Part shown: piece by piece, positions 3,501 to 46,411 of the stretch
How positions within the stretch are numbered: position 1 is the stretch's first letter
How the letters are laid out: every line of letters starts with the position of its first letter
Origin: Candidatus Kaiserbacteria bacterium CG10_big_fil_rev_8_21_14_0_10_47_16
GTDB taxonomy: Bacteria > Patescibacteriota > Minisyncoccia > Phycocordibacterales > UBA918
Length of the DNA stretch: 64,000 nucleotides
Reading direction: 5' to 3'
Assembly (NCBI GenBank): GCA_002773395.1
Contig: PFBI01000006.1
Location: forward strand, 335,860-399,859
The notes under the pieces: model-generated
Seen by the model: only the letters and a program-made list of their open reading frames with translations
What the model was told of the DNA's origin: nothing
Databases searched by the model: none
Translations under genes and position numbers: made by a program

Positions 3501-3777
3501 ACACAGGATTATATCACTCCCTCTACAGAACTCGCATTTTTTGTAGTGTAGTGGTATTATTTCGCGTACGTTTGACTGGGTTTCCTGGTCAGATTTAGGG
3601 CTTACGAGTTGTATCTTCGCCTACCGGCTCGATACCCCTCCTCTTCGCTCGGATATCGAGAGTCGCAAGCAAACGATATAAAGAACGAGTCACAAGAGCA
3701 TCGGGTTGGCTGCATCCGCAGCACCCCTCGCTCGAAAGTCATGAATAAAAACAAGCTTTTATTCACTCTTTCTCACT

Positions 3778-3848
3778 CGGGGTGTAGCATAGTGGTAGTG
3801 TACGCGGTTTGGGACCGTGTGGTCCGGGTTCGATTCCCGGCTCCCCGA
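3778..3848 (+). tRNA. tRNA-Pro (anticodon UGG)
   Basis: Manual fold: acceptor CGGGGTG/CTCCCCG with one U-U at 6:67, D-arm GCAT/GTGT, anticodon stem CGCGG/CCGTG, loop TTTGGGA giving anticodon TGG, T-arm CCGGG-TTCGATT-CCCGG, discriminator A. It closely parallels E. coli tRNA-Pro(UGG). Confidence 0.75.
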
Positions 3849-4051
3849 CAAAGACGAAGTTTTTGTCCATGTAGAATCACAAGACTTCTCCGAGAAACAC
3901 GGCTGACTAGCGTGTTTCGAGCATCCTATAAGTCCAGTGAATTGTTTGTCGATAGTAGTGTCGACAAACTCCAACTGGAAAAATCTGCCGACGAGGCAAT
4001 TTTTCCAGGCAATACTAAAACAAATAAAAGACAGGTTCTGCCTGCCTTTTA

Positions 4052-4079
4052 TTGTAAAAATATATAAATCCTGTAGTAT
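4052..4079 (+). promoter_or_regulatory. Sigma-70-like promoter (TTGTAA-16-TAGTAT) for the small ORF 4108-4398
   Basis: A -35 TTGTAA and -10 TAGTAT with a 16 nt spacer, followed by a GGAGGT Shine-Dalgarno 5 nt before the ATG at 4108. Confidence 0.4.
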
Positions 4080-4107
4080 TCCACCGAACAGCACCTTGGA
4101 GGTCAAA

Positions 4108-4398
4108 ATGCCAAAATACCACGTAATAGCGTGGCGAGCTCCGGGTGAAGCAGCTTGCTTCTTTCGCGGAGACAATCGTTACGCCATATACCTGCCTTTC
4201 ATCTCATCGACAGGTATAACAAAGGGGTGGGTTTCGGACATTTCTGAAGCTCGAGTCTTTGAAGGTTACCCTTGTCTAGACAGAAGAAGTGCTTCGAAGA
4301 GACTCGATCTCTCGAGAATTCGAGTCTTCCCCTACGATGGACCCATCTTATCCAGCCAGATCTTCCGGCCCATAGTTAGGCCGCGCTCCCGCTTCTAA
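4108..4398 (+). CDS. Hypothetical small basic protein (about 96 aa)
   Basis: Internal Met of track ORF 3937-4398 with a strong RBS (GGAGGTcaaaATG). An upstream promoter-like site and a downstream hairpin plus T-rich tract (about 4416-4450) flank it. No recognisable family. Confidence 0.4.
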   Translation: MPKYHVIAWRAPGEAACFFRGDNRYAIYLPFISSTGITKGWVSDISEARVFEGYPCLDRRSASKRLDLSRIRVFPYDGPILSSQIFRPIVRPRSRF

Positions 4399-4482
4399 CA
4401 AGACACCACCACACCCGACGGAATCACCTCCGCTCGGGTGATTTCTGTTTCACATGAAACTTCCTAGCTAAAATATAAAAAC

Positions 4483-4519
4483 CTAAAAGGGCGCGTCCAC
4501 GAGAATGTGAAACGCGCCC
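4483..4519 (-). terminator. Rho-independent terminator of yraN (minus-strand hairpin AGGGCGCG...CGCGCCCT followed by a T-run on the minus strand)
   Basis: Inverted repeat GGGCGCG/CGCGCCC with an A-run on the plus strand, which is a U-run on the minus strand, immediately downstream of the yraN stop. Confidence 0.5.
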
Positions 4520-4578
4520 TCCGTGTTGCTATGAATAAAGATCTTCTGAGTAGAAGAATACGCCTATTTTTTGGAATG

Positions 4579-5007
4579 TCAATACCCCAACTCCACCCCC
4601 TCAACAACCTCCACAACCGCGTACTTTTCACGTGGAACGGTCCTGACCGCTGCTACATCCACCTGAATATCCCCTTTCCAAGCCTTTTCTGATATCCATG
4701 TCTCAATGACGCGCCGTAAACGCTGTCTTTTATGAAAATGCACGTTATCTTCCGGTTTATACGTTCCATGTGAAACATTCCGCTCTAAATCCCCTATTGT
4801 TTCATGTGAAACTGTTTTTACCTCAACAAAGTATACTTTTAGGCCTTTTTTAAGAATAAGATCAATCTCTCCCCACTTCTGGCGATAGTTCCGCTCCAAC
4901 ATCTCAAATCCTCTCTCCATATACCAAAGTGCCGCAATATCTTCACCTATAACACCAACAGATATGTGTGCCGGTGCATTCATGAGGATGCTGTCACTAT
5001 GTTTCAT
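4579..5007 (-). CDS. yraN: YraN family (UPF0102) predicted endonuclease
   Basis: GEIDLI and VEVK motifs characteristic of UPF0102/YraN. It carries two GTTTCA-NN-TGAAAC-type sites inside the CDS and one over its start codon. Confidence 0.75.
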   Translation of the reverse strand: MKHSDSILMNAPAHISVGVIGEDIAALWYMERGFEMLERNYRQKWGEIDLILKKGLKVYFVEVKTVSHETIGDLERNVSHGTYKPEDNVHFHKRQRLRRVIETWISEKAWKGDIQVDVAAVRTVPREKYAVVEVVEGVELGY

Positions 5008-5114
5008 ATGAAACAGTATACCGTGTCTTATACCGCTACCTGCATGGGTTTCATGTGAAACACGTACAATATGGCTTATTTATTGAAACAATATGTTCCA
5101 CGTGGAACATATTG
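5001..5114. promoter_or_regulatory. Cluster of palindromic operator-like sites upstream of yraN: GTTTCATATGAAAC (5001-5014), GTTTCATGTGAAAC (5048-5061) and a 26-nt palindrome CAATATGTTCCACGTGGAACATATTG (5089-5114)
   Basis: Perfect inverted repeats read directly. Related copies are at 4447-4460, 4763-4776 (degenerate) and 4799-4812. Confidence 0.5.
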
Positions 5115-5261
5115 AAATACAGTGTACAACATGTACTTTATGAGAAACCTATATTTTGAGCCCTTTCTATGCAAAAAGTGTCTTTTATAGCGATGTCCTT
5201 TATGCACATATCCCCTCTCTTATGCACAGTTTTCCACTGCCTGAATGAGTAAAAGACGGTG

Positions 5262-5289
5262 TTGACTATATATTGTTATGTGGTATAAA
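5262..5289 (+). promoter_or_regulatory. Sigma-70-like promoter TTGACT-16-TATAAA for the 5351 membrane-protein gene
   Basis: Consensus-like -35 and -10 with a 16 nt spacer, about 60 nt upstream of the ATG with a GGAAAGGG RBS. Confidence 0.45.
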
Positions 5290-5350
5290 TACCAATAGTT
5301 TACGGTCTTGTCCTGATATACATCACAATTTGCTTGGGAAAGGGTACTAA

Positions 5351-26952: not shown

Positions 26953-27594
26953 ATGCCTTCTTCAACGAAACAAACCTCAGCACAAGACTTTGTACCGATC
27001 GCCGACATTAGAGACGGTGTCGTTATTTTAAAAGATGGCCAGATGTGCAGTGTTCTCCTTGCCTCATCAATCAACTTCGCGCTCAAATCGACCGACGAAC
27101 AAACTGCCATCTTGGCGCAGTTCCAAGCATTCCTCAACACCCTCGATTTTTCAATACAAATGCACGTCGAGTCGAGACGTCTCGATATTCGACCGTATCT
27201 TGAGATGCTCGCGACCCGCGAGAGTACCCAATACAACGATCTCATGCGCACACAGCTTCGCGAATACATGGAGTTTATTCGTTCATTTACTGAAGAGGTG
27301 GATATCATGGCGAAGCGCTTTTTCCTTGTCATTCCGTACAGCCCGACGACAACCAACGTGCGGAGCAACATCACAAGCTTCCTTGGGCGTCGGTCTACGG
27401 CACCCTTTGATGCAAACCGCTTCCGTGAGCATCAAACCCAACTCGAGCAACGCGTTGATGTGGTCACACAAGGGCTCGCACGTATTGGTGTGAAGACACT
27501 TCCACTCGGAACCGACGAGCTCACCGAACTCTATTACCACATCTTTAATCCGGGGGAGCAGTCGGCTGCACCACGCCCAACAAATGCTATATGA
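26953..27594 (+). CDS. VirB4/TraC-family N-terminal domain encoded as a separate ORF
   Basis: The IADIRDGVVILKDGQMCSVLLASSINFALKSTDEQTAIL...SIQMHVESRRLDI pattern is typical of the VirB4/TrbE N-terminal domain. Its stop overlaps the next start (ATATGA). Confidence 0.6.
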   Translation: MPSSTKQTSAQDFVPIADIRDGVVILKDGQMCSVLLASSINFALKSTDEQTAILAQFQAFLNTLDFSIQMHVESRRLDIRPYLEMLATRESTQYNDLMRTQLREYMEFIRSFTEEVDIMAKRFFLVIPYSPTTTNVRSNITSFLGRRSTAPFDANRFREHQTQLEQRVDVVTQGLARIGVKTLPLGTDELTELYYHIFNPGEQSAAPRPTNAI

Positions 27595-29411
27595 GTGTTT
27601 TTGATTTTCTAAAAAAGAAGCCCGCAGCGCCGCAACCACCTTCTGATGGTACGCCAACAGATATTTCCGCAGGCACCGGTATGAATATCCCTGATATTAT
27701 TGCGCCTGCTGCAATCAGTATCAACCCGCAAAGTCTCAATGTGAGCGGACGTCTTTCGCGCGTCTTCTTTGCAGTGTCATACCCACGATATCTCAATGAC
27801 GGCTGGCTCGAACCAATCCTCAACCTCTCACGCGAGATGGATATTTCTATTGTGGTACACCCGATCAACACAGCAGATACGCTGAAGAAATTCCAAAAGA
27901 AAGTTGCCGAGGTACAGAGCCAAATTGCTGACCGTGAAGGACGTGGGCAAGTGCGTGATCCACAACTTGAGGCGGCATACCGAAACCTCGAAGACCTCCG
28001 TGACAAGCTCCAACAAGCAGAAGAGAAGCTCTTTGACGTTGGTTTCTATATTGCAATTTACGGCGACACTGAGGCAGAGCTCAGCAAAACGGAAACGGAA
28101 ATTAAAAGTATTCTTGACGCCCGTCTCGTCTACATTAAGCCGGCAGTATTCCAGCAGGAACAAGGGTTCCGAAGTATTTTGCCAACTGCGCGCGATGAGC
28201 TTTTGGTACACAACAAGTTTAATTCGTCACCGCTCTCAAGCTTTTTCCCATTCACCTCATTCGACCTCACGTCTGACACGGGGATTCTCTACGGCATCAA
28301 CCGCCACAACTCATCACTCGTTCTCTTTGATCGATTCTCACTTGCCAACTACAACTCAGTGACCTTTGCAACCTCTGGTGCAGGGAAGTCATACGCAGTA
28401 AAGCTCGAGATTCTTCGGTCAATGATGTTTGGGACGGAGGTGATTGTCATCGACCCTGAACACGAGTACGAGTACCTCGCAGAAGCAACCGGCGGACGGT
28501 TCTTTAATATTTCACTTTCTTCAGACCACCATATCAATCCGTTCGATCTTCCGATGCCACAGGCAGATGAGAACCCTGAAGATGTTCTCCGTTCACATAT
28601 CATCGAGCTCGTTGGCCTCTTTAAACTCATGCTTGGTGGACTTACGCCTGAAGAAGACGCCTTGATCGATCAAGCGCTTCGCGAAACGTACGCCCTCAAA
28701 GACATTACCGGAGCCTCTGATTTCTCGAGCCTTGAACCACCACTTCTGTCTGACTTCGAAATGGTACTCGCGGGAATGGAGGGGAGTAGTTCACTCCTCA
28801 GTCGTCTCTCAAAGTACACCACGGGTACATGGGCAGGTTTCATGAATAAGCCCACAAACGTAGATATCAACCAGAAGTTTATTGTGTTCTCTCTCCGCGA
28901 CATGGAAGAGGAACTCAAGAGTATTGCGATGTATATTGTGACAAACCACATTTGGGGAGCTATCCGCCGAGAACTTAAAAAGAGACTCCTCGTTATTGAC
29001 GAGGCATGGTGGATGCTCAAACAAGAGAGCACTGCAGAATTCCTTCACGGCATTGCAAAGCGCGGTCGCAAGTACTACCTCGGTCTCGCAACAATTACAC
29101 AGGACGTGGACGATTTCTTGCGCTCACCATACGGTGTCCCAATGATCACCAACTCCTCGATGCAGCTTTTGATGAAGCAGTCGCCGACGGCGATCGATAC
29201 CCTCCAGCAAGTGTTCAATCTCACCGACGAGGAGAAGTATTTGCTCCTTGAGTCAGGAGTGGGGGAGGGGATATTCTTTGCAGGACTCAAGCATGTGGCT
29301 ATTAAGGTGATCGCTTCTTACACTGAAGACCAGATCATCACCTCCGATCCATCGCAGCTGCTCCAAATAAAGGCAGCCCGACAAGAGTTTCAGAATGCGG
29401 CAGGACACTAG
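27591..29411 (+). CDS. VirB4-like type IV secretion ATPase (C-terminal ATPase portion)
   Basis: Walker A ATSGAGKS and the VirB4-specific DEAW Walker B (VIDEAWWML). Length 606 aa; together with the upstream ORF it totals about 819 aa. Confidence 0.75.
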   Translation: MSVFDFLKKKPAAPQPPSDGTPTDISAGTGMNIPDIIAPAAISINPQSLNVSGRLSRVFFAVSYPRYLNDGWLEPILNLSREMDISIVVHPINTADTLKKFQKKVAEVQSQIADREGRGQVRDPQLEAAYRNLEDLRDKLQQAEEKLFDVGFYIAIYGDTEAELSKTETEIKSILDARLVYIKPAVFQQEQGFRSILPTARDELLVHNKFNSSPLSSFFPFTSFDLTSDTGILYGINRHNSSLVLFDRFSLANYNSVTFATSGAGKSYAVKLEILRSMMFGTEVIVIDPEHEYEYLAEATGGRFFNISLSSDHHINPFDLPMPQADENPEDVLRSHIIELVGLFKLMLGGLTPEEDALIDQALRETYALKDITGASDFSSLEPPLLSDFEMVLAGMEGSSSLLSRLSKYTTGTWAGFMNKPTNVDINQKFIVFSLRDMEEELKSIAMYIVTNHIWGAIRRELKKRLLVIDEAWWMLKQESTAEFLHGIAKRGRKYYLGLATITQDVDDFLRSPYGVPMITNSSMQLLMKQSPTAIDTLQQVFNLTDEEKYLLLESGVGEGIFFAGLKHVAIKVIASYTEDQIITSDPSQLLQIKAARQEFQNAAGH

Positions 29412-33518: not shown

Positions 33519-34283
33519 TTATATTTGTTTTTCAAGTTCTTCTGGGAGCACATGTGGATGCCGTTTCCGAACGACGTACTCTTGTGCAATACCGAAGATG
33601 TTACTAACTGCGAAGTAGAGAGCTATAGCTGCTGAGATTGTATACCCAATCACAAAGATAATGATTGGCATACCGTACTTCATTTGTATCTGCATACTGC
33701 GACTGAAATCATCTTTGAAGTTTGGTGTCGCATCTTTTTCGCGAGGTTTCAGTGGTGGGAGTGACATCTTCATAAGGACGTACTGTGAGAGACCTGCGAT
33801 GAGCGCGATCGGGAAACTCTTTGCAGCCATATCAACAGCACCGAGAAAGAGCATCGATGCTGTTTCTGGGTTTGGAATAAAACTATAAAGGATTGCGGTG
33901 TTGATTTCAGGCAAGTGTACGCCTCCACCACGTGCTACTGAGAAGTAGAGCGCAATAATGATTGGGATTTGGATAAACAGAAGGAGAATACTTGAGAAAG
34001 GATTTACGCCCGCTTTCTTGTAAAGCTCCATCATGTGCTTCGCCAGTTCTTCGCGCTTATCTTTGTACTTCTCTTGTATCCGTTTGAGTTCCGGTTCAAT
34101 AAGTCTCATTGCACGCTGTGTATGCGCAGCCTTCATTGAGAGAGGGAGGAGTACCGTCTTTACCACAATAGTGGTGAAGACAATCGCAAGTCCTATATCT
34201 CCTCCGGGTACGACGTCAATAAAAAAGACAAGGATGTTATATACAGGATCAAAGAATATGGTGTGCCAAAGATTTAAAAACAT
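33519..34283 (-). CDS. yidC: Membrane protein insertase YidC (short form)
   Basis: YidC/Oxa1 core with 5 TM helices, downstream of rnpA as in most bacteria. Confidence 0.85.
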   Translation of the reverse strand: MFLNLWHTIFFDPVYNILVFFIDVVPGGDIGLAIVFTTIVVKTVLLPLSMKAAHTQRAMRLIEPELKRIQEKYKDKREELAKHMMELYKKAGVNPFSSILLLFIQIPIIIALYFSVARGGGVHLPEINTAILYSFIPNPETASMLFLGAVDMAAKSFPIALIAGLSQYVLMKMSLPPLKPREKDATPNFKDDFSRSMQIQMKYGMPIIIFVIGYTISAAIALYFAVSNIFGIAQEYVVRKRHPHVLPEELEKQI

Positions 34284-34295
34284 AAGGTCTACAGT

Positions 34296-34628
34296 CTATC
34301 GTGTATTCTGTATTCTTCCAACCGCAGCAGACACCGCATGACTGAGATCCTCATACGAAGCGCCAACTGCATCCTTCTTTAAAAGAATAATGCAGACACC
34401 GGTGCGTGCCTGTGCTCGCGCGAGGCGACGCAAGATGTCATACACCTGCCGCCTGATTTTGTTCCGCTTTACCGCAGACTTAAGTATCTTCTTTGGTACT
34501 ACAACTGCACCATGGAATGCATTGTGCGGGGCACACACAAGGGTAAAGAGGGGAGTGTGGAGGCGTTTCCCCGACGCAAAAAAGCGATCAAAATCGCTTT
34601 TTGTGAGACGTTCAGTCTTCGCGAGCAT
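34296..34628 (-). CDS. rnpA: Ribonuclease P protein component
   Basis: A 110-aa basic protein with the RNR motif region (KRNKIRRQ), located between rpmH and yidC. Confidence 0.8.
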   Translation of the reverse strand: MLAKTERLTKSDFDRFFASGKRLHTPLFTLVCAPHNAFHGAVVVPKKILKSAVKRNKIRRQVYDILRRLARAQARTGVCIILLKKDAVGASYEDLSHAVSAAVGRIQNTR

Positions 34629-34636
34629 GTGTATTA

Positions 34637-34774
34637 TTATACACTGAGTTTTGCTCGTCCTTTTCGTCTACGTGACTGGAGGATTTTTGACCCTGACTTC
34701 GTGCCGCTTCGCACAAGGAAACCGTGCGTTGTTGCGCGTTTTCGTTTCTTTGGCTGATACGTTCGTTTTGGCAT
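34637..34774 (-). CDS. rpmH: 50S ribosomal protein L34
   Basis: Manual translation gives [45 protein letters not shown] (45 aa), a canonical L34. It is not in the ORF track because it is under 60 aa. Confidence 0.8.
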
Positions 34775-35012
34775 ACTGGTTCGTTATGTGAGAGTGCACT
34801 GTACACCATATAATAAACAAAATCAAGATACTCACCAGCCCTCCACTCTTTGACTTTTTAAGTCATTGACAGTTACCGCAATTTAGAGCTCTCCACAGGT
34901 TGTACACAGGTAGACAAACAATATCCCCACAAACACTGCGTATTTGTGGAAAACGTTTACACATCTTGAGAGACCGGTATAATGCTTTCTATCGCTTGAA
35001 TGTTCTATCTCT

Positions 35013-36395
35013 ATGGATTCACTTACACAATCATCTCGCAGTATCGTTCAGACACAGCAAATTGATGTTAAGCAGCTCTGGGACGACACTCTCGTCCAGA
35101 TTGAGCTTTCCATTACCGCTGCCAACTTCAAAACATGGTTTCGTGACACACATATTGTGTCTCTCGAGGACGGAACAGTGACCCTTGGCGTCCCCAGTGT
35201 CTTTGTGCGCGACTGGCTTGCTGATAAGTTCCAATCGCTCATCTTGAAAACCCTCCGTGACCTCACTCCACACGTTCGAAGTATCGAATACGCGGTGGTG
35301 CAACGCTCAAGTAAGAAGTTTGAGTCAAGTAAGAAGCAAACAGTAAACGCAACCCTGCCCCTTGAGGAGTACTACATCAACAAGAACGACAACCTCAACC
35401 CGAAGTATCTTTTCGAAACGTTTGTTGTCGGCCCATTCAACGAACTTGCGCATGCTGCTGCAAAAGCCGTGTGTGAAAAGCCGGGGATTGTGTACAACCC
35501 ACTCTTTATTTATGGAAAAACAGGCCACGGGAAGACACACCTTATCCAAGCGGTAGGGAACCAACTAAAACGAAATGGCCGAAGTGTGTTCTATGTCACC
35601 AGTGAGCGGTTTGCGGTGGATTATATGAACTCTCTCCAGAGTGGTACCGCAAATAACTTCAAAAATAAGTACCGCCAGTACGATGTGCTTATCATGGACG
35701 ACGTGCAGTTCCTCTCAAGTAAGGAAAAGACGCAGGAAGAACTCTTCCACCTCTTCAACGCAATGCACGACAACAACAAACAGATTGTGTTCTCAAGTGA
35801 TACGCACCCAGCACTACTCTCAGGGCTCCAGGAACGTCTCCAGTCACGTTTTGCACAAGGAATGATTGTAGACATCCCGCAGCCTGACAGTGAGTCTCGT
35901 GCGTCGATTATTCAATCAAAGACTGCACGCAGTAATATCACGCTTGAGAATGACGTTATCACCTTCCTTGCGACGACTATTGAGGGGAACATCCGGGAGC
36001 TTGAGGGTGCGCTCAACATTGTAATGTGCCAAACACAGGTGACTGGACGAACACTTTCACTCGATGAGGTTGTCGCGCTCATGAAAAACAGCGCGCGCCC
36101 ACGACGATCACTCGCGGTATCTGATGTTGTTGATAAAGTCGCACGATACTTTGATGTCGAACCATCTAGTATCTACGAAAAAACGCGGCGAAAGGAGATT
36201 GTGAAGCCTCGACAGCTCATTATGTACATTCTCCGAGAAGATTTTGCGGTCTCATACCCATCTATCGGCCAAAAGCTTGGTGGGCGTGACCACACAACCG
36301 TCATCCACTCATGTGAAAAGATTAAGCGTGAGGTGTTGGAAGGGAATGATGATTTGGTAGAAGAAATTGCTCAAATTCGAGCGCTTCTCCAATAA
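35013..36395 (+). CDS. dnaA: Chromosomal replication initiator protein DnaA
   Basis: AAA+ Walker A GKTGHGKTHL, sensor motifs and a C-terminal DnaA-box-binding HTH. Confidence 0.95.
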   Translation: MDSLTQSSRSIVQTQQIDVKQLWDDTLVQIELSITAANFKTWFRDTHIVSLEDGTVTLGVPSVFVRDWLADKFQSLILKTLRDLTPHVRSIEYAVVQRSSKKFESSKKQTVNATLPLEEYYINKNDNLNPKYLFETFVVGPFNELAHAAAKAVCEKPGIVYNPLFIYGKTGHGKTHLIQAVGNQLKRNGRSVFYVTSERFAVDYMNSLQSGTANNFKNKYRQYDVLIMDDVQFLSSKEKTQEELFHLFNAMHDNNKQIVFSSDTHPALLSGLQERLQSRFAQGMIVDIPQPDSESRASIIQSKTARSNITLENDVITFLATTIEGNIRELEGALNIVMCQTQVTGRTLSLDEVVALMKNSARPRRSLAVSDVVDKVARYFDVEPSSIYEKTRRKEIVKPRQLIMYILREDFAVSYPSIGQKLGGRDHTTVIHSCEKIKREVLEGNDDLVEEIAQIRALLQ

Positions 36396-36422
36396 AAACA
36401 GCGTGTCTACGCTGTTTTTATA

Positions 36423-36714
36423 AGCCCTCGAAACCCCTGTGTACTACCTGTGAATATCGATGGTAAAATCACTGTGGAAGACTCGGTATGAATGTGTGTA
36501 TAAACGACAAATAATTTACACTTATGCACACATATACACCGACAGCCCAAATAGGTAGAGTATATGCACACCAATGTGAGGGTGAGTACACAGTTTTTCT
36601 TTCAGAGTGTTGATGAGATAAAGGTGAAGGTATACGGTAAAATTGGTTTATACACCTATCCACACTCCTAATAGGGAATAGTGGTTTTAGAAAAAATAAA
36701 TAATAAGAACAGTT
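36423..36714. other. Putative oriC segment with DnaA-box-like 9-mers and an AT-rich unwinding element between dnaA and dnaN
   Basis: TTATNCACA-like sites are visible (TGTGTATAA, TTATGCACA, TTATACACC, TATCCACAC, TTATGCACA at the dnaN start), along with an AT-rich run TTTTAGAAAAAATAAATAATAAGAA. More boxes (TATCCCCACA, TTTTCCACAAA) lie between rpmH and dnaA. Confidence 0.5.
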
Positions 36715-37803
36715 ATGCACATCACGGTCGACCATATAAAACTCCAAAATCTTCTCGAAAGAGTTGCACGAGTGAGTACAAAACACCTCACACTCCCTGC
36801 GCTCCAATGTGTACTTCTTGATGTAAAAGAAAACACCCTCACTATTCGCGCAACAAATCTAGAGATAGGTATTGAAGGCACTATTGCAGTTGATGTAAAA
36901 GAAGAGGGAACAGTGAGTGTTATTGCGCAAACGTTTTTACAAATTGTTTCACTTATTTCACAAAAAGACGTAACACTTCACACAGAAGGTGATGTGCTTA
37001 TTGTGGAGACAAAAACATCACGCACAACAATCCATACAATTACTGCACAAGATTTCCCTCATATCCCAAAAGTGGAAGGGAAAGGACAGGTTATTAAAGG
37101 AACTATTTTTGCAAATGCAGTAAAGACGGCAGCGTTTGCTGCGTCACAGTCGTCTATTAAGCCAGAACTCGGCTCAGTGTATGTATTTCAAAAGAAGGAA
37201 CACACACTTACCTGTGTTGCGACAGACTCCTTCCGATTGGTAGAAAAAACAGTTTCCCAACAAAATGTTGTTCTTGAAGAGGGAATACTTATTCCCGCGA
37301 AGAATGCACTTGAACTCGCGCGACTCTGTGATTCCCAAGATGACGACCCAATGTTGTACATAACAGAGAATCAATGTGCGTTGCAGTTTGAGAACATCTA
37401 TATCACATCACGGCTTACGTCAGGAACCTTCCCTGACTACGCTCAGATCATTCCTAAGGAGTTTGTGAGCCATAGTACACTCCTTACCCAAGACCTGCAG
37501 AATGCGCTCAAGAAGACGAGTATATTCCTTAATAAGTTCATGCAGCTTACGATCGCGGCGTCAGCGCAAAATCTCACCCTTACCTCAAAAGGTGATGTAG
37601 GGACAACAACTGAGAAAACACCCGCAAGTCTTGAGGGGGATGAAATCTCCTTAAACTTCAACCAACGATATATCGCAGATATTTTAGGGTACATCACCGA
37701 CGAAAGTATAACGATTCACTTTGCAGGGACGGGGCGACCGATCATTATTGAAAGTGTGCACGATAAGTCACTCCGGTATTTGGTAATGCCAATGAATAAG
37801 TAG
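36715..37803 (+). CDS. dnaN: DNA polymerase III beta sliding clamp
   Basis: Three-domain beta-clamp length and sequence. Position after dnaA. Confidence 0.9.
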   Translation: MHITVDHIKLQNLLERVARVSTKHLTLPALQCVLLDVKENTLTIRATNLEIGIEGTIAVDVKEEGTVSVIAQTFLQIVSLISQKDVTLHTEGDVLIVETKTSRTTIHTITAQDFPHIPKVEGKGQVIKGTIFANAVKTAAFAASQSSIKPELGSVYVFQKKEHTLTCVATDSFRLVEKTVSQQNVVLEEGILIPAKNALELARLCDSQDDDPMLYITENQCALQFENIYITSRLTSGTFPDYAQIIPKEFVSHSTLLTQDLQNALKKTSIFLNKFMQLTIAASAQNLTLTSKGDVGTTTEKTPASLEGDEISLNFNQRYIADILGYITDESITIHFAGTGRPIIIESVHDKSLRYLVMPMNK

Positions 37804-42163: not shown

Positions 42164-42646
42164 TCATATTCCGCCGCGGGTATGTGCGAGGGTGGTTATG
42201 CCGACAGCGATTGCGTCGTATTCGTCGTCGAGCGCGGCTGCGGGGACGTTTGGAACGAGGCGTTTTACCATATCCATAACCGCATGTTTGTCGCTGTTCC
42301 CGTAGCCGGTCACCGCAACTTTTATTTCTTGTGGGCCGTACTCATGAACGGTGCACCCATGCACCTGTGCAAGATAGAGAATGATGCCACGAGCTTCGGC
42401 GACCGCGATGCCGGTCTTTTGGTTCTTGTTAAAGAAGATTGTTTCAATACCAACAGCATTCGGAGCATACTCGGTAAGGAGATTGTCGATTGCAACGCCG
42501 AGTGAGTGAAGACGGCTGGGGAGAGGACTATTTTTATCACTCGATATACACGTAGAGAAGATAAGCACTTCTTTACCGCTCTCACCACGTTCCATAATGG
42601 CGACACCGAGCCGATCGTATCCAGGGTCAATAGCGAGTACACGCAT
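42164..42646 (-). CDS. ruvC: Holliday junction resolvase RuvC
   Basis: MRVLAIDPG...GIET... carries the RuvC catalytic acidic residues. The track ORF runs to 42895 through the terminator and yebC tail. The true start is the Met at ~42646. Confidence 0.8.
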   Translation of the reverse strand: MRVLAIDPGYDRLGVAIMERGESGKEVLIFSTCISSDKNSPLPSRLHSLGVAIDNLLTEYAPNAVGIETIFFNKNQKTGIAVAEARGIILYLAQVHGCTVHEYGPQEIKVAVTGYGNSDKHAVMDMVKRLVPNVPAAALDDEYDAIAVGITTLAHTRGGI

Positions 42647-42663
42647 ACGCGTACAGAGTACCA

Positions 42664-42709
42664 TGAAAAAAGCCGACCATGACACACCGGTGTCATGGTC
42701 GGCTTTTTT
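42664..42709. terminator. Bidirectional terminator between yebC and ruvC (AGCCGACCATGACAC-ACCG-GTGTCATGGTCGGCT)
   Basis: 15-bp stem with A6 before and T6 after. Confidence 0.6.
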
Positions 42710-42713
42710 CAAG

Positions 42714-43259
42714 CTAGTCCCCCTCGGGAGTGTCGGCAGTTGTATATATTTCCTGCACGTCGTCTTGTTCTTCCAGTTTTTCAATAAGCTCAGCAAGCTT
42801 CTCGCCGTCGTTGTCCGAGAGTTCGATAGGCATGTTCGGAACGTATCGTTCAGACGTTTTTGTGAACGCCCAGAGCGATGACCCTGGTGCGCCAAGCTCG
42901 TACCCAGCCTTTGAAAAGATATGTTTAATTTCAGGAGCAGTGCGGTTGTTGTTGTCAGTCACGGCAGTAATGATCAGTGCAGTTCCGCCAGGGCCAAATG
43001 CTTCAAAGGTCACTTCCTCAAGTGCGGCACCGCCGGCACCTCCACCTTTTGCGACCGCGCGATCGATATTATCTTTTGGCATTGAATCCTTCTTCGCACG
43101 CTCGATTGCAGCGATGAGTCCTGGAGCCGACGTGTCGCCACCTGCTTTCCGTGATTCCATCGCAATGAGGGCAGCATGTTTTGAAAACACCTTACTCTTT
43201 ACCGCATCAGTTGCCGCTTTCTTGTGCTTAATTTTTGACCATTTATTATGTCCTGACAT
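42714..43259 (-). CDS. yebC: YebC/PmpR family DNA-binding transcriptional regulator
   Basis: N-terminal MSGHNKWSKIKHKK... signature of the YebC family. Conserved neighbourhood with ruv genes. Confidence 0.85.
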   Translation of the reverse strand: MSGHNKWSKIKHKKAATDAVKSKVFSKHAALIAMESRKAGGDTSAPGLIAAIERAKKDSMPKDNIDRAVAKGGGAGGAALEEVTFEAFGPGGTALIITAVTDNNNRTAPEIKHIFSKAGYELGAPGSSLWAFTKTSERYVPNMPIELSDNDGEKLAELIEKLEEQDDVQEIYTTADTPEGD

Positions 43260-43314
43260 AGTGTTGAATATTTATGTATATAAAGTGTATGAAACGAAAC
43301 GTAGGAACGCAAGT

Positions 43315-44301
43315 TTAAAGATTCTGGATGTGACTGTATGCGATCGGAGTTGCAACACGACCGCGAGGCGTACGCTCGAGGAGTCCTTGGCGAATGAGGT
43401 ATGGTTCGAGAACGTCCTCGATTGTCGCCTGCTCCTCGCCGGTTGCGGCAGCGATGGTGTTGAGTCCGACAGGACCACCGTTGAACTTGGTGATAATTGC
43501 GTCGAGTACTGCACGGTCGGGACCAGAGAGACCGAGTGTGTCTATCTCGAGAAGACCAAACGTTCGGCTGACGGTGTCGGCAGTAATAGCCCCACCTTCA
43601 AGCTGTGCTAAGTCGCGGCATCGCTTGAGGAGATAGTTTGCAGTACGTGGTGTTGCGCGACAACGTGCAGCGATGCCACTAAATATTTGATCAGGGGTAT
43701 CGACACCAAGGAGTGCCGCTGAGCGCCTTAGGATTGTTGCGATTTCATCTTCAGAATAAAACTCCAATCGGAATGTACCGCCAGAAAAGCGTGATCGAAG
43801 CGGTGAGGAGAGGAGCGAAATGCGCGTTGTTGCGGCAACGAGTGTAAAGGGAGGAAGTTCAAGTTGTACCGTGCGTGCAGACGGACCTTTTCCAATAATG
43901 ATATCGAGAACTCCCGATTCCATAGCAGGGTAGAGAACTTCTTCAATGCTTTTACTGAGTCGGTGGATCTCATCAATAAAGAGGACGTCACCGGGAGAGA
44001 GGTTGGTGAGGATTGCCGCAAGATCGCCAACACGTTCAATGGCGGGCCCTGATGTTGAGCGCATGTTGGTCCCTAAGGTTTTTGAAATCAGGTGTGCGAG
44101 AGTCGTCTTCCCGAGTCCGGGCGGTCCATAGAGAAGAATATGTTCTGCAGCGTGTCCACGTTCGCGTGCGGCCGTGAGTAAAATACGCAGGTTTTCCTTT
44201 ATTTTTTCTTGACCCACATACTCGTCCCAACTTTGTGGGCGAAGGGTCTGGTCAAGGTTGCTCGCAAAATCACGAGAAATTTCTTTGGAGTCAGTATCCA
44301 T
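43315..44301 (-). CDS. ruvB: Holliday junction branch-migration helicase RuvB
   Basis: AAA+ Walker [12 protein letters not shown], Walker B and the RuvB winged-helix C-terminus. Confidence 0.9.
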
Positions 44302-44359
44302 TGGGACATTTTACCAAAGAAGCACCCAAAAGGGCAGGAGTAACAAAAAGGGGTAAGGG

Positions 44360-44387
44360 TTGACAAAAATAATCAGTATGCTAGAAT
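44360..44387 (+). promoter_or_regulatory. Near-consensus sigma-70 promoter TTGACA-16-TAGAAT facing a roughly 290-nt ORF-less region
   Basis: Perfect -35 hexamer, 16-nt spacer and a 5/6 -10 hexamer, read directly. Confidence 0.5.
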
Positions 44388-44393
44388 ACTGGT

Positions 44394-44690
44394 GTTCGTT
44401 CTTCATCTGCCGCTTTTGCGACAGGTGTTTTCTTTTTAATTTTAGAGTGGAGAAAGAAGGGTTATCCAGCCGATAACCCTCTAAACAACAAAAGGTTGCT
44501 TTACGAGGACACTGTGGTGCTCACCTTCGAGTGAGATCTCTGTGGTGTTCCTTAGTTCTGTAACCACTTCTTCCGGGAAGTTTTGCTTAGAGGGTTATAT
44601 TCTGGATTCTCAGTGAACACCACCGATGTAACTAGGGAATACTCTAGCACATGAAAAAGCATCTGCGTATTGACCAGATGCTTTTTGTAT
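44394..44690 (+). ncRNA. Candidate structured non-coding RNA of unknown family, from promoter to terminator with no ORF
   Basis: Bounded by the consensus promoter and the hairpin AAAAAGCATCTG-CGTATTGAC-CAGATGCTTTTT. Several internal stems are visible, such as GGGTTATC-CAGCCG-GATAACCC nested in TTTAGAG/CTCTAAA, CTCAC-CTTCGA-GTGAG, ACTTC-TTCCGGG-GAAGT, and a long-range TGGTGTTC / GAACACCA pairing. Confidence 0.35.
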
Positions 44691-44704
44691 TTCGGGGGCA
44701 TTTA

Positions 44705-46411
44705 TCAGACTGTGTCCTCAGAATCTTGGTCTGTATCAAGATCAGGCGCCTCTTCAGTGGTGCGAGTGTTGTGAAGATCGATCACACGTTCGAGCTCATC
44801 GAGGGAGGTGATGCCGGCGAGAACTTTTTCAATACCGTCTTGCGCCATACTCGGAATATCTTGTTTCTTCGCTGCGGCAAGAATGTGTATTTCACGAGGA
44901 TCACGAATGACCGCTTCCTCGACGGCGGTGTCAACGCGAATTGCTTCAAAGACACCTTTGCGTCCCTTGTATCCACTTCCACCACATGCGGGGCAACCCT
45001 TTGGTTCGTAGATGGTGTGCTGCGCAACTGGTTCGTCCATGATTTGTGCAATGAGTGTTTGTTCTTGTGTAGTTGCGTCACGCTGTACTTTGCATTCATT
45101 ACAGAGAAGACGAACCAAGCGTTGTCCGAGGATGAGATTGACGGAACTGCCGATTGTACGGGCATCAACACCGAGGTCGAGTAGACGAGGGAAGGCAGCT
45201 GCTGCGCTGTTTGTGTGGAGTGTGGAGAAGACGAGGTGACCGGTGAGCGCCGCGTTCATGGCGGTTTCCGCTACCTCGCGGTCACGGATCTCACCGACCA
45301 TAATAATGTCGGGGTCTTGCCGGAGAATTGCACGAAGACCTTGCGCGAAGGTGTAATCTTCTTCAATTTGGGTCTGTACGATTCCAGGGAGCTTATATTC
45401 AACAGGATCTTCAATGGTCACAATCTTTGTTTCGGGCGTATGGACTTTTTGCATGAATGCGTAGAGTGCGGTTGTTTTTCCTGAACCGGTTGGACCGGTA
45501 GTAATGATGGCGCCATTTGGTCGTACGAGCTCTTCAAGAACGACGGCTTTGAGTTTGTCATTGAGACCTAGACCTTCAAGGGTAAACCCAGATGCGTCAG
45601 GGTCGAGGAGACGCATTACGACAGACTCACCGTATGCACCAGGAATGACTGATGTACGCACTTCGATCTTGCGTGTACCCACGTCGAAGGTGAAGCGCCC
45701 GTCTTGTGCTTCGTTGTGAATATTGAGGATAAGGCCAGAGAGAAGTTTTATACGAGACGTAATGAGTGTGTAGATTGTTTTGTCGGCATTGGTAATATCC
45801 CACAACACACCATCGAGACGGTATCGAAAACGCACGGTGTTTTGTTCTGGTTCAATGTGGATGTCAGATGCACCGAGCGCGAGTGCGCCCGCGAACAGTA
45901 CCTCGATAGTACTTGTTGCACGCTCTGTTTTATTTGTTTGCTGTACTTCAAGGATTTTGGTTGCAACGTCGAGGTGCGTTTTAATTTCTGCAGCGAATGC
46001 GGTAATGGCGGCAGGACTGATGTCGAGGACACCCTGCTTCTCAGCTGTTGCAGAGAGAACGTCTTTGTAGCGAAGCCACGCATGGTCGAGACTTGCGAGC
46101 GTAACGAGGTATCCGGTAATGGTGTAGCCGCGTGACTCAAGAGATTGGAGCACCTCTTCGGTCTTCGGATTTTCAGGATTTTGAATAGCGACAGAAAGCT
46201 GTTTGTTTTGTTCGAGGAATGCAGCAACCTGAGCTTCGCGAGCAACCTTTTCAGGAATGAGCGCAAGCGCATCGGTATCGATGGTAATACCGTGGAGATT
46301 GGTATATCCGAGGTTGTAGTTTGGGGCCAGCATGCGGGCAGCGTTCTCCTCCGCGCTGTGTCCAAGCGATTCGAGCTTTTGATTGATACGCGTGTCATCA
46401 AACTGTGGCAT
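44705..46411 (-). CDS. pilB: Type IV pilus / type II secretion family assembly ATPase (PilB/GspE)
   Basis: Walker A GPTGSGKTT, Asp and His boxes and a tetracysteine Zn motif (CNEC...CPACGGSG). Confidence 0.85.
   Translation of the reverse strand: MPQFDDTRINQKLESLGHSAEENAARMLAPNYNLGYTNLHGITIDTDALALIPEKVAREAQVAAFLEQNKQLSVAIQNPENPKTEEVLQSLESRGYTITGYLVTLASLDHAWLRYKDVLSATAEKQGVLDISPAAITAFAAEIKTHLDVATKILEVQQTNKTERATSTIEVLFAGALALGASDIHIEPEQNTVRFRYRLDGVLWDITNADKTIYTLITSRIKLLSGLILNIHNEAQDGRFTFDVGTRKIEVRTSVIPGAYGESVVMRLLDPDASGFTLEGLGLNDKLKAVVLEELVRPNGAIITTGPTGSGKTTALYAFMQKVHTPETKIVTIEDPVEYKLPGIVQTQIEEDYTFAQGLRAILRQDPDIIMVGEIRDREVAETAMNAALTGHLVFSTLHTNSAAAAFPRLLDLGVDARTIGSSVNLILGQRLVRLLCNECKVQRDATTQEQTLIAQIMDEPVAQHTIYEPKGCPACGGSGYKGRKGVFEAIRVDTAVEEAVIRDPREIHILAAAKKQDIPSMAQDGIEKVLAGITSLDELERVIDLHNTRTTEEAPDLDTDQDSEDTV

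Follow-up and report, generated by a model that had tools for sequence, protein, structure and literature searches.

Why should a single small gene be crowded, on both flanks and inside its coding sequence, with copies of one palindrome? The question is raised by a contig (PFBI01000006.1) of Candidatus Kaiserbacteria bacterium CG10_big_fil_rev_8_21_14_0_10_47_16, of which a stretch of 64,000 nucleotides was analysed as a whole (hereafter the window) and in which palindromes of the type GTTTCA-NN-TGAAAC surround yraN, a gene for a small nuclease. Sites were defined by the consensus GTTYCAYRTGRAAC, in which T/C was allowed at position 4 and A/G at position 11 and up to one mismatch was accepted. 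The window contains seven such sites, six of them exact and one (site 2) with a single mismatch (Table 1), and all seven lie inside 662 bp (4447-5108); outside this interval the scan of the 64 kb at the same stringency returned no further GTTYCAYRTGRAAC match. Shuffled sequence yields 0.14 matches on average and never more than 1. In this comparison, the clustering described in an earlier note on this DNA clearly exceeds what composition would give, and the motif is spread neither through the window nor through the 10 kb on either side of yraN in relatives. The four full palindromes of that note (sites 1, 4, 5 and 6) were all found as stated, as was a perfect 26-nt palindrome, the centre of which is the seventh site. 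What had been taken for degenerate or half sites resolved differently, as one of them (site 3) counts as full if position 4 may be T or C, while 4505-4513 indeed holds one half-site. The in-gene sites encoding VSHET and VSHGT were likewise confirmed, and a third one, encoding VPREK, had been overlooked. Of the seven sites, three are located upstream of yraN, including one over its start codon, one lies downstream, and the other three are within the coding sequence. The distance from each upstream site to the next is exactly 47 bp, the three in-gene sites share a reading frame, and sites 5 and 7 are perfect 16-mers.

The palindromes are probably copies of parS, the chromosome-partition site that is loaded by ParB (Spo0J), and binding of such a protein is predicted from the sequence of the sites. 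Their 14-mers and 16-mers match TGTTNCACGTGAAACA and TGTTCCACGTGGAACA, and the palindromic form tGTTNCACGTGAAACa fits as well. The parS consensus was reported to be TGTTNCACGTGAAACA in most bacteria, GTTTCACGTGAAAC in Mycobacterium smegmatis and TGTTCCACGTGGAACA in Pseudomonas putida, and near-identical forms to the latter are found in Myxococcus xanthus and Pseudomonas aeruginosa (PMC7022226). Site 7 of the window is identical, base for base, to the P. putida consensus. Moreover, the half-sites GTTTCAC/GTTCCAC are bound by some ParB proteins, and parS sites normally lie in the origin domain of the chromosome (PMC7022226). Within the sites near yraN the central dinucleotide is pyrimidine-purine in 566/568 cases, though the search pattern left the centre free.

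As an unbiased control, public metagenome contigs were scanned for two copies of GTTTCAYRTGAAAC 5-21 bp apart, which gave 80 loci ranging from 29 to 73% G+C. A canonical ParB is encoded in 36 of these 80 loci (E values 1e-22 to 1e-96, mostly 1e-56 to 1e-96, with a small profile built from three ParB sequences) and Soj/ParA in 43, many of the remaining contigs being too short to tell whether parAB is present. The site nearest to the parB reading frame is at a median distance of 779 bp. Because ParB and ParA accompany the motif so often in this control, the motif is a general marker of bacterial par loci, and the ParB profile has good sensitivity. Two further arrays were seen elsewhere: a dense array of TA-centred parS sites near a yyaC-like gene on a Firmicute-like contig (L148:842-1532) and six parS sites spaced by 32-37 bp on a contig of 1 kb (L133:781-963).

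Other assignments of the motif fit less well. Consensus forms for regulators of the Crp/Fnr/Xre type are TGTGA-N6-TCACA and TTGAT-N4-ATCAA, and the motif resembles neither. A regulator of the Crp/Fnr/Xre type, as proposed in the earlier note, is not supported, the motif being parS and forming one sharply bounded cluster per locus near the replication origin. The proposal of an operator array that loops DNA fared no better, since there is a single bounded cluster with sites at yraN only and no dispersed regulon. An SOS/LexA box was also considered as yraN is a DNA-processing gene, and it was rejected because the motif is unlike boxes of the GAAC-N4-GTTC type.

The array is not a peculiarity of this genome. 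Using YraN homologues, three orthologous loci (71, 74 and 58% protein identity) were collected first, and all of them carry equivalent clusters upstream of, inside and just after yraN, the neighbouring genes being different ones in one case. Scanning GTDB with one genome per species added 80 further yraN loci from records named Kaiserbacteria, Nomurabacteria, Paceibacteria and similar, resulting in 84 non-redundant loci with 80 species representatives. A site array is present on yraN in every one of these 84 Paceibacteria loci, with 3-12 sites (median 8) and a median span of 890 bp, so the sites are anything but absent from orthologous regions. Typically three sites (range three to five) are located in the gene and one to three directly after its stop codon, and the commonest spacing in other species is 24-26 bp, compared to 47 bp in the lineage of the window. 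In the relatives there are about 5 sites per kb at yraN and virtually none beyond -3.5/+2 kb within the ±10 kb inspected; outside -3.5/+2.5 kb only one stray site was found in about 800 kb (83 loci). As the sites are essentially confined to yraN within ±10 kb, the array is to be seen as a single cis-acting locus without a regulon.

At the level of single sites, site 6 is conserved in two relatives (L001 and L004). One of these (L001:2893-2920) keeps a 24-nt palindrome matching window positions 5089-5114, with G..C in place of the outer A..T pair, both arms having changed. No reason was found for the extra symmetry around the core at 5089-5114, which as RNA would form a hairpin of -14 kcal/mol. 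An origin of the intergenic sites from a partial duplication of yraN was considered and rejected, as a repeat search shows only the 14-18-nt motif itself to be repeated.

The sites inside the gene allow it to be asked whether selection acts on the protein or on the DNA. One could argue that the in-gene palindromes are a by-product of conserved peptides (VSYET etc.) and that the intergenic ones are due to chance or base composition, and indeed V66, S67, E69 and T70 are invariant in the YraN alignment. This explanation is refuted by the codons, whose synonymous positions are fixed far beyond codon bias. In 74 species with the peptide V-S-[Y/H]-E, whose YraN is about 43-63% identical to that of the window, Val is encoded by GTT in 73/74 (background 30%), Ser by TCA in 73/74 (25%), Tyr by TAT in 64/65 (56%) and Glu by GAA in 74/74 (62%). 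In 45/74 cases an A follows the 14-mer, at what would be position 16 of the parS 16-mer, with an ACA background of 25%. Neither would a by-product account for the intergenic sites, which share the consensus and the pyrimidine-purine centre and whose clustering exceeds the shuffled expectation. Among the in-gene sites, 238/249 are in frame 0 and they occupy four fixed places in the protein; at the position of site 2, GTTCCACGTGAAAA or GTACCACGTGAAAC is found in at least 47 species. The in-gene sites are thus under selection on the DNA itself, as the earlier note had suggested for the coding sequence, and they therefore dictate the peptides VS[HY]ET, VS[HYR]GT and VPRE[KT].

The symmetry of the sites agrees with the dimeric DNA-binding protein suggested previously. 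Variation in one half-site is independent of that in the other (positions 4 and 11, Fisher p = 0.21) and, with the exception of the 26-nt palindrome, the RNA hairpins of the sites are no stabler than those of shuffled sequence, which points to a dimeric protein bound to double-stranded DNA as the reader of the sites. The same observations bear on the idea that the palindromes act as RNA hairpins in the yraN mRNA or its flanks, controlling translation or serving as a target of an RNase such as the NYN-domain protein encoded downstream in some relatives. The start codon does lie within one site, and a gene with a Pfam NYN-domain match (PF01936) follows yraN in two relatives (L004 and L005). However, hairpins of the 14-mers have little stability (-3.8 to -6.8 kcal/mol), it is the sequence and not the pairing that is conserved, and the sense-strand C·A mismatch variant (51 cases) is commoner than the U·G variant (36 cases). 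In addition, sites lie upstream of the probable transcription start, and the NYN gene is absent from the window without leaving a remnant. A role as RNA is therefore a most improbable one. The gene concerned encodes 164 amino acids and lies after yraN, past one or two parS sites, in close relatives (L001:3491-3985, L004:1468-1962); its counterpart in L001 has no NYN match, and in the window a non-conserved open reading frame (ORF; 3937-4398) stands in its place, which has no homologue in the 84 related loci.

With regard to its position on the chromosome, the window contains the canonical replication-origin neighbourhood yidC, rnpA, dnaA and dnaN (33519-37803; origin region 34629-37803), and the minimum of the cumulative GC skew falls at about 34-38 kb. 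The array is located 30 kb from dnaA/dnaN and from this minimum, corresponding to about 5% of a genome whose size is 624 kb or more, and at this distance it lies inside the origin domain. DnaA-box-like words were observed at 34880-34960. Around the origin (27591-29411, 42164-46411), a TraG/VirB4-like type IV secretion ATPase and a type II/IV secretion (pilus) ATPase are encoded, with RuvC nearby.

Table 1. Features of the window discussed in the text; positions count from the first letter of the window, and 14-mer positions of the sites are given in brackets.
Feature	Position	Strand	Sequence	Remark
parS-like site 1	4446..4461 (4447-4460)		14-mer GTTTCACATGAAAC; 16-mer TGTTTCACATGAAACT	119 nt 3' of yraN stop codon
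isolated half-site	4507..4513		GTGAAAC	sequence match
parS-like site 2	4624..4639 (4625-4638)		14-mer TTTTCACGTGGAAC	in yraN, encodes VPREK, one mismatch
parS-like site 3	4762..4777 (4763-4776)		14-mer GTTCCATGTGAAAC	in yraN, encodes VSHGT
parS-like site 4	4798..4813 (4799-4812)		14-mer GTTTCATGTGAAAC	in yraN, encodes VSHET
parS-like site 5	5000..5015 (5001-5014)		14-mer GTTTCATATGAAAC; perfect 16-mer TGTTTCATATGAAACA	over yraN start codon
parS-like site 6	5047..5062 (5048-5061)		14-mer GTTTCATGTGAAAC; 16-mer GGTTTCATGTGAAACA	47 bp from site 5
parS-like site 7	5094-5109 (5095-5108)		14-mer GTTCCACGTGGAAC; 16-mer TGTTCCACGTGGAACA	core of 26-nt palindrome; 47 bp from site 6
perfect 26-nt palindrome	5089..5114			five further symmetric bases on each side of site 7 core
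yraN	4579..5007	-		UPF0102, PD-(D/E)xK nuclease, 142 amino acids; PF02021, E 4.6e-19
probable -10 box of yraN	5015..5020	-	TATACT	abuts site 5, 7 nt before ATG
yidC	33519-34283			Pfam match
rnpA (RNase P protein)	34296-34628			Pfam match
dnaA	35013-36395			Pfam match
dnaN (beta clamp)	36715-37803			Pfam match

The carrier gene itself encodes a protein identical to the database entry with locus tag COU16_03340. D49, E62 and K64 are invariant, and G46-E47-x-D49 and E62-V63-K64 are constant in 24 homologues. YraN was described as a single-stranded DNA endonuclease that acts as nuclease partner of the ComM helicase when D-loops of transformation are resolved (bioRxiv 10.1101/2024.02.06.579203). 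The AlphaFold model of the window's protein has a pLDDT of 84, and its best structural matches are 3FOV and Hjc resolvases. In the model, the site-encoded peptides are placed where the catalytic strand ends, in a loop of low confidence and, for VPREK, in the turn of a beta-hairpin; judged from these places, the spots likely tolerate a sequence that is imposed from the DNA level. It was considered whether YraN itself, as a PD-(D/E)xK nuclease dimer, binds or nicks GTTYCAYRTGRAAC, so that the gene would be surrounded by the sites of its own product, likened to plasmid centromeres located beside the gene of their binding protein. The linkage of array and yraN in 100% of the loci would fit this, as would the subfamily specificity of the site-encoded peptides, and restriction-enzyme-like folds commonly read short palindromes, the model weakly resembling HincII as well as Hjc. 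Yet the modelled positions of the peptides offer no obvious reading head, an independent evolution of the exact ParB specificity would be unparsimonious, and the abstract on the activity at D-loops together with ComM reports no sequence specificity (bioRxiv 10.1101/2024.02.06.579203). The chance that YraN reads its own sites is thus judged to be slim.

The start of yraN is closely entangled with the array, the minus-strand ATG within site 5 being the start codon. A start-codon site with the ATG in frame is found in 41/84 yraN loci, and in at least 15 loci including the window a TATACT/TATAAT box, often TGn-extended, is located 7-8 nt before the ATG and abuts this site. As the -10 box directly abuts the start-codon site, the yraN mRNA is probably leaderless and would start inside site 5, and for the same reason a protein occupying site 5 would block RNA polymerase. 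It is plausible from this arrangement that yraN is repressed as a side effect of site-5 occupancy. This leads to the question whether repression might be the sole function, the sites being operators of a dedicated repressor of yraN with a specificity that coincides with parS, and no centromere. One site over the start codon after the -10 box, others where the promoter would be, an array locked to yraN in 84/84 loci without an adjoining parAB operon, and the role of YraN in transformation, a process that as a rule is under tight regulation (bioRxiv 10.1101/2024.02.06.579203), all speak for it.

A candidate for such a repressor is an uncharacterised protein of 224 amino acids with an N-terminal helix-turn-helix (HTH), which is encoded directly upstream of yraN in 66/84 loci. 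In these loci (L018:7994-9371 and 65 others) its gene is often tandemly duplicated and occurs in records of the Patescibacteria type only; a domain of about 180 amino acids contains a 'PLFxAGLxxYxxxGD' motif that appears LAGLIDADG-like by eye only, and the protein has no Pfam family beyond weak generic HTH matches. As binder of the sites it was rejected because it is absent from the window and unrelated to ParB or to PDB entries beyond the generic HTH. None of its 111 detected homologues is on the contigs of this genome, and it is missing beside yraN in the syntenic locus L001. The search for a regulator that is nearby or co-occurs, as suggested in the earlier note, has thus returned one conserved HTH neighbour, which was found neither in the window nor, for this genome, among the 111 homologues detected. 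Apart from the missing candidate, a repressor would need neither sites past the stop codon nor three to five sites in the gene, no other gene within ±10 kb carries sites that would make up a regulon, and the motif is identical to the pan-bacterial parS found beside parAB in the control. A dedicated repressor is therefore regarded as unlikely.

Several observations weigh against the assignment as a chromosomal parS array. Searches by a motif regular expression, by tblastn with Spo0J and Soj and with a three-sequence ParB hidden Markov model detected no ParB or ParA gene; they covered the window, the 10 kb adjoining it on the right and 1.44 Mb of DNA made up mainly of yraN loci, about 85% of this genome being outside the searched DNA. 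The array adjoins parAB in 0/84 yraN loci, compared to 36/80 control arrays (43/80 if parA is counted). Closeness to the origin was seen for this genome only; the 10-kb flanks examined in the other species do not contain dnaA, and synteny, by which it might have been followed, stops after the genes for the CCA-adding enzyme and exonuclease III. The centres of the intergenic sites are CG in 45%, CA or TG in 37% and TA in 18%, compared to 91% CG beside canonical parAB; however, CA/TG- and TA-centred sites do occur directly upstream of canonical parA genes (L092, L108), which speaks for the assignment. Finally, a strict linkage to one non-par gene, with 3-5 sites in a coding sequence of 420 bp, is not needed for a centromere and may indicate an additional yraN-specific function. 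With so much of the genome outside the searched DNA, presence of a ParB is assumed, and a ParB homologue is taken as the binding protein on account of the site sequence. As a variant of the parS assignment, Paceibacteria might have re-purposed the centromere, either lacking a canonical ParB and using another reader (the HTH neighbour or YraN) or possessing ParB and using the array to switch yraN with the replication and segregation state of the origin region. This would explain why sites at the start codon, in the gene and in the flanks are locked to yraN class-wide and unlinked to parAB, and it is considered a tentative possibility, with a minor chance of being correct.

Elsewhere, ParB dimers load at parS as CTP-dependent clamps and spread on neighbouring DNA, and ParB recruits the SMC condensin and, together with ParA, helps to segregate newly replicated origins. 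Returning to the parS assignment, we propose that the array is an origin-proximal chromosomal 'centromere' which in Paceibacteria, members of the candidate phyla radiation (CPR), is compressed to less than 1 kb on and around yraN. ParB dimers would load at the sites of the array and form a partition complex that marks the origin region for segregation. Occupancy of site 5, next to the -10 box, would probably also lower yraN transcription, and it is conceivable that centromere occupancy is in this way linked to the expression of a recombination nuclease. The chromosomal position of the array might be the older trait: the gene for the CCA-adding enzyme is the usual upstream neighbour of yraN arrays, and an array of five perfect CG-centred parS sites (L129:3872-4261), intergenic and without yraN, is also located beside a CCA-adding enzyme gene. 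As both kinds of array adjoin this gene, the position may predate the link to yraN. The record L129 probably derives from another Patescibacteria lineage, and its CCA-adding enzyme is 47% identical to that of the window.

The surroundings of the array are sparse in genes, as had been described before and as is broadly right: 3850-4578 contains only the non-conserved ORF mentioned above, 5008-5350 is intergenic, and similarly long gaps flank yraN in relatives. Of known RNA families (Rfam), the window contains five tRNAs only. A segment at 3542-3630 is similar to the adjacent tRNA-Pro gene (3778-3849) in its 5' and 3' portions but 28 nt longer mid-way; it is called by neither ARAGORN nor Rfam and could represent a decayed copy of a tRNA.

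Almost nothing is known about chromosome organisation and segregation in the tiny, mostly uncultured CPR bacteria, and literature searches on parS or ParB in Patescibacteria/Parcubacteria turned up nothing relevant; the array provides a testable centromere candidate for Paceibacteria. It is also a natural example of a DNA-binding code that overrides codon choice, and the parS sequence has probably shaped the YraN protein, whose subfamily-conserved VSYET, VSxGT and VPREK are spelled by the centromere sequence. In practical terms, pieces of fragmented metagenome assemblies that belong to the origin region are marked by the array, which could also serve as a partition cassette in genetic tools for these organisms. 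Absence of ParB, or control of yraN by the array, would add considerably to the interest of the finding.

How does the array compare to known systems? The chromosomal parS of Bacillus subtilis (ten sites, TGTTNCACGTGAAACA) shares with it the 16-bp palindrome, T/C at position 5 of the 16-mer, the small number of sites, the location in the origin domain and the fact that sites may lie inside coding sequence. The parS site inside B. subtilis spo0J presumably reads NVPRET, which we take to be the same peptide as that of the VPRE[KT] site in yraN. In contrast to B. subtilis, where the sites are distributed over tens to hundreds of kb, 7-8 sites are located here in about 0.7-0.9 kb, 3-5 of them in one non-par gene of 420 bp, the array is away from parAB, and about half of the sites have CA/TG or TA instead of CG at their centre. 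With parS of P. putida, P. aeruginosa and M. xanthus (TGTTCCACGTGGAACA/G), the array shares the exact TGTTCCACGTGGAACA at 5094-5109; unlike in Pseudomonas and Myxococcus, this form is here one variant among GTTTCA-type sites and is extended by five symmetric bases per side. The sopC centromere of the F plasmid consists of twelve 43-bp repeats and resembles the array in its many close and regularly spaced sites for a ParB-type protein (47 bp here, 24-26 bp in other species). However, sopC is plasmid-specific, non-coding and located beside the par operon, whereas the array is chromosomal, has the chromosomal parS sequence and overlaps a gene. Effects of ParB-parS on neighbouring genes have precedents as well: ParB complexes at parS can reduce the expression of genes beside them, and ParB-parS influences the competence operon of Streptococcus pneumoniae. 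In P. aeruginosa, silencing occurs near parS1-4 (PMC7022226). In analogy, the gene adjacent to the array is a transformation nuclease with one site over its transcription and translation start, and a comparable effect on its expression would be expected. Taken together, the kind of array is well known as chromosomal parS, while its dense arrangement, unlinked to parAB, relaxed in its centre and locked to yraN, appears to be undescribed in the searchable literature.

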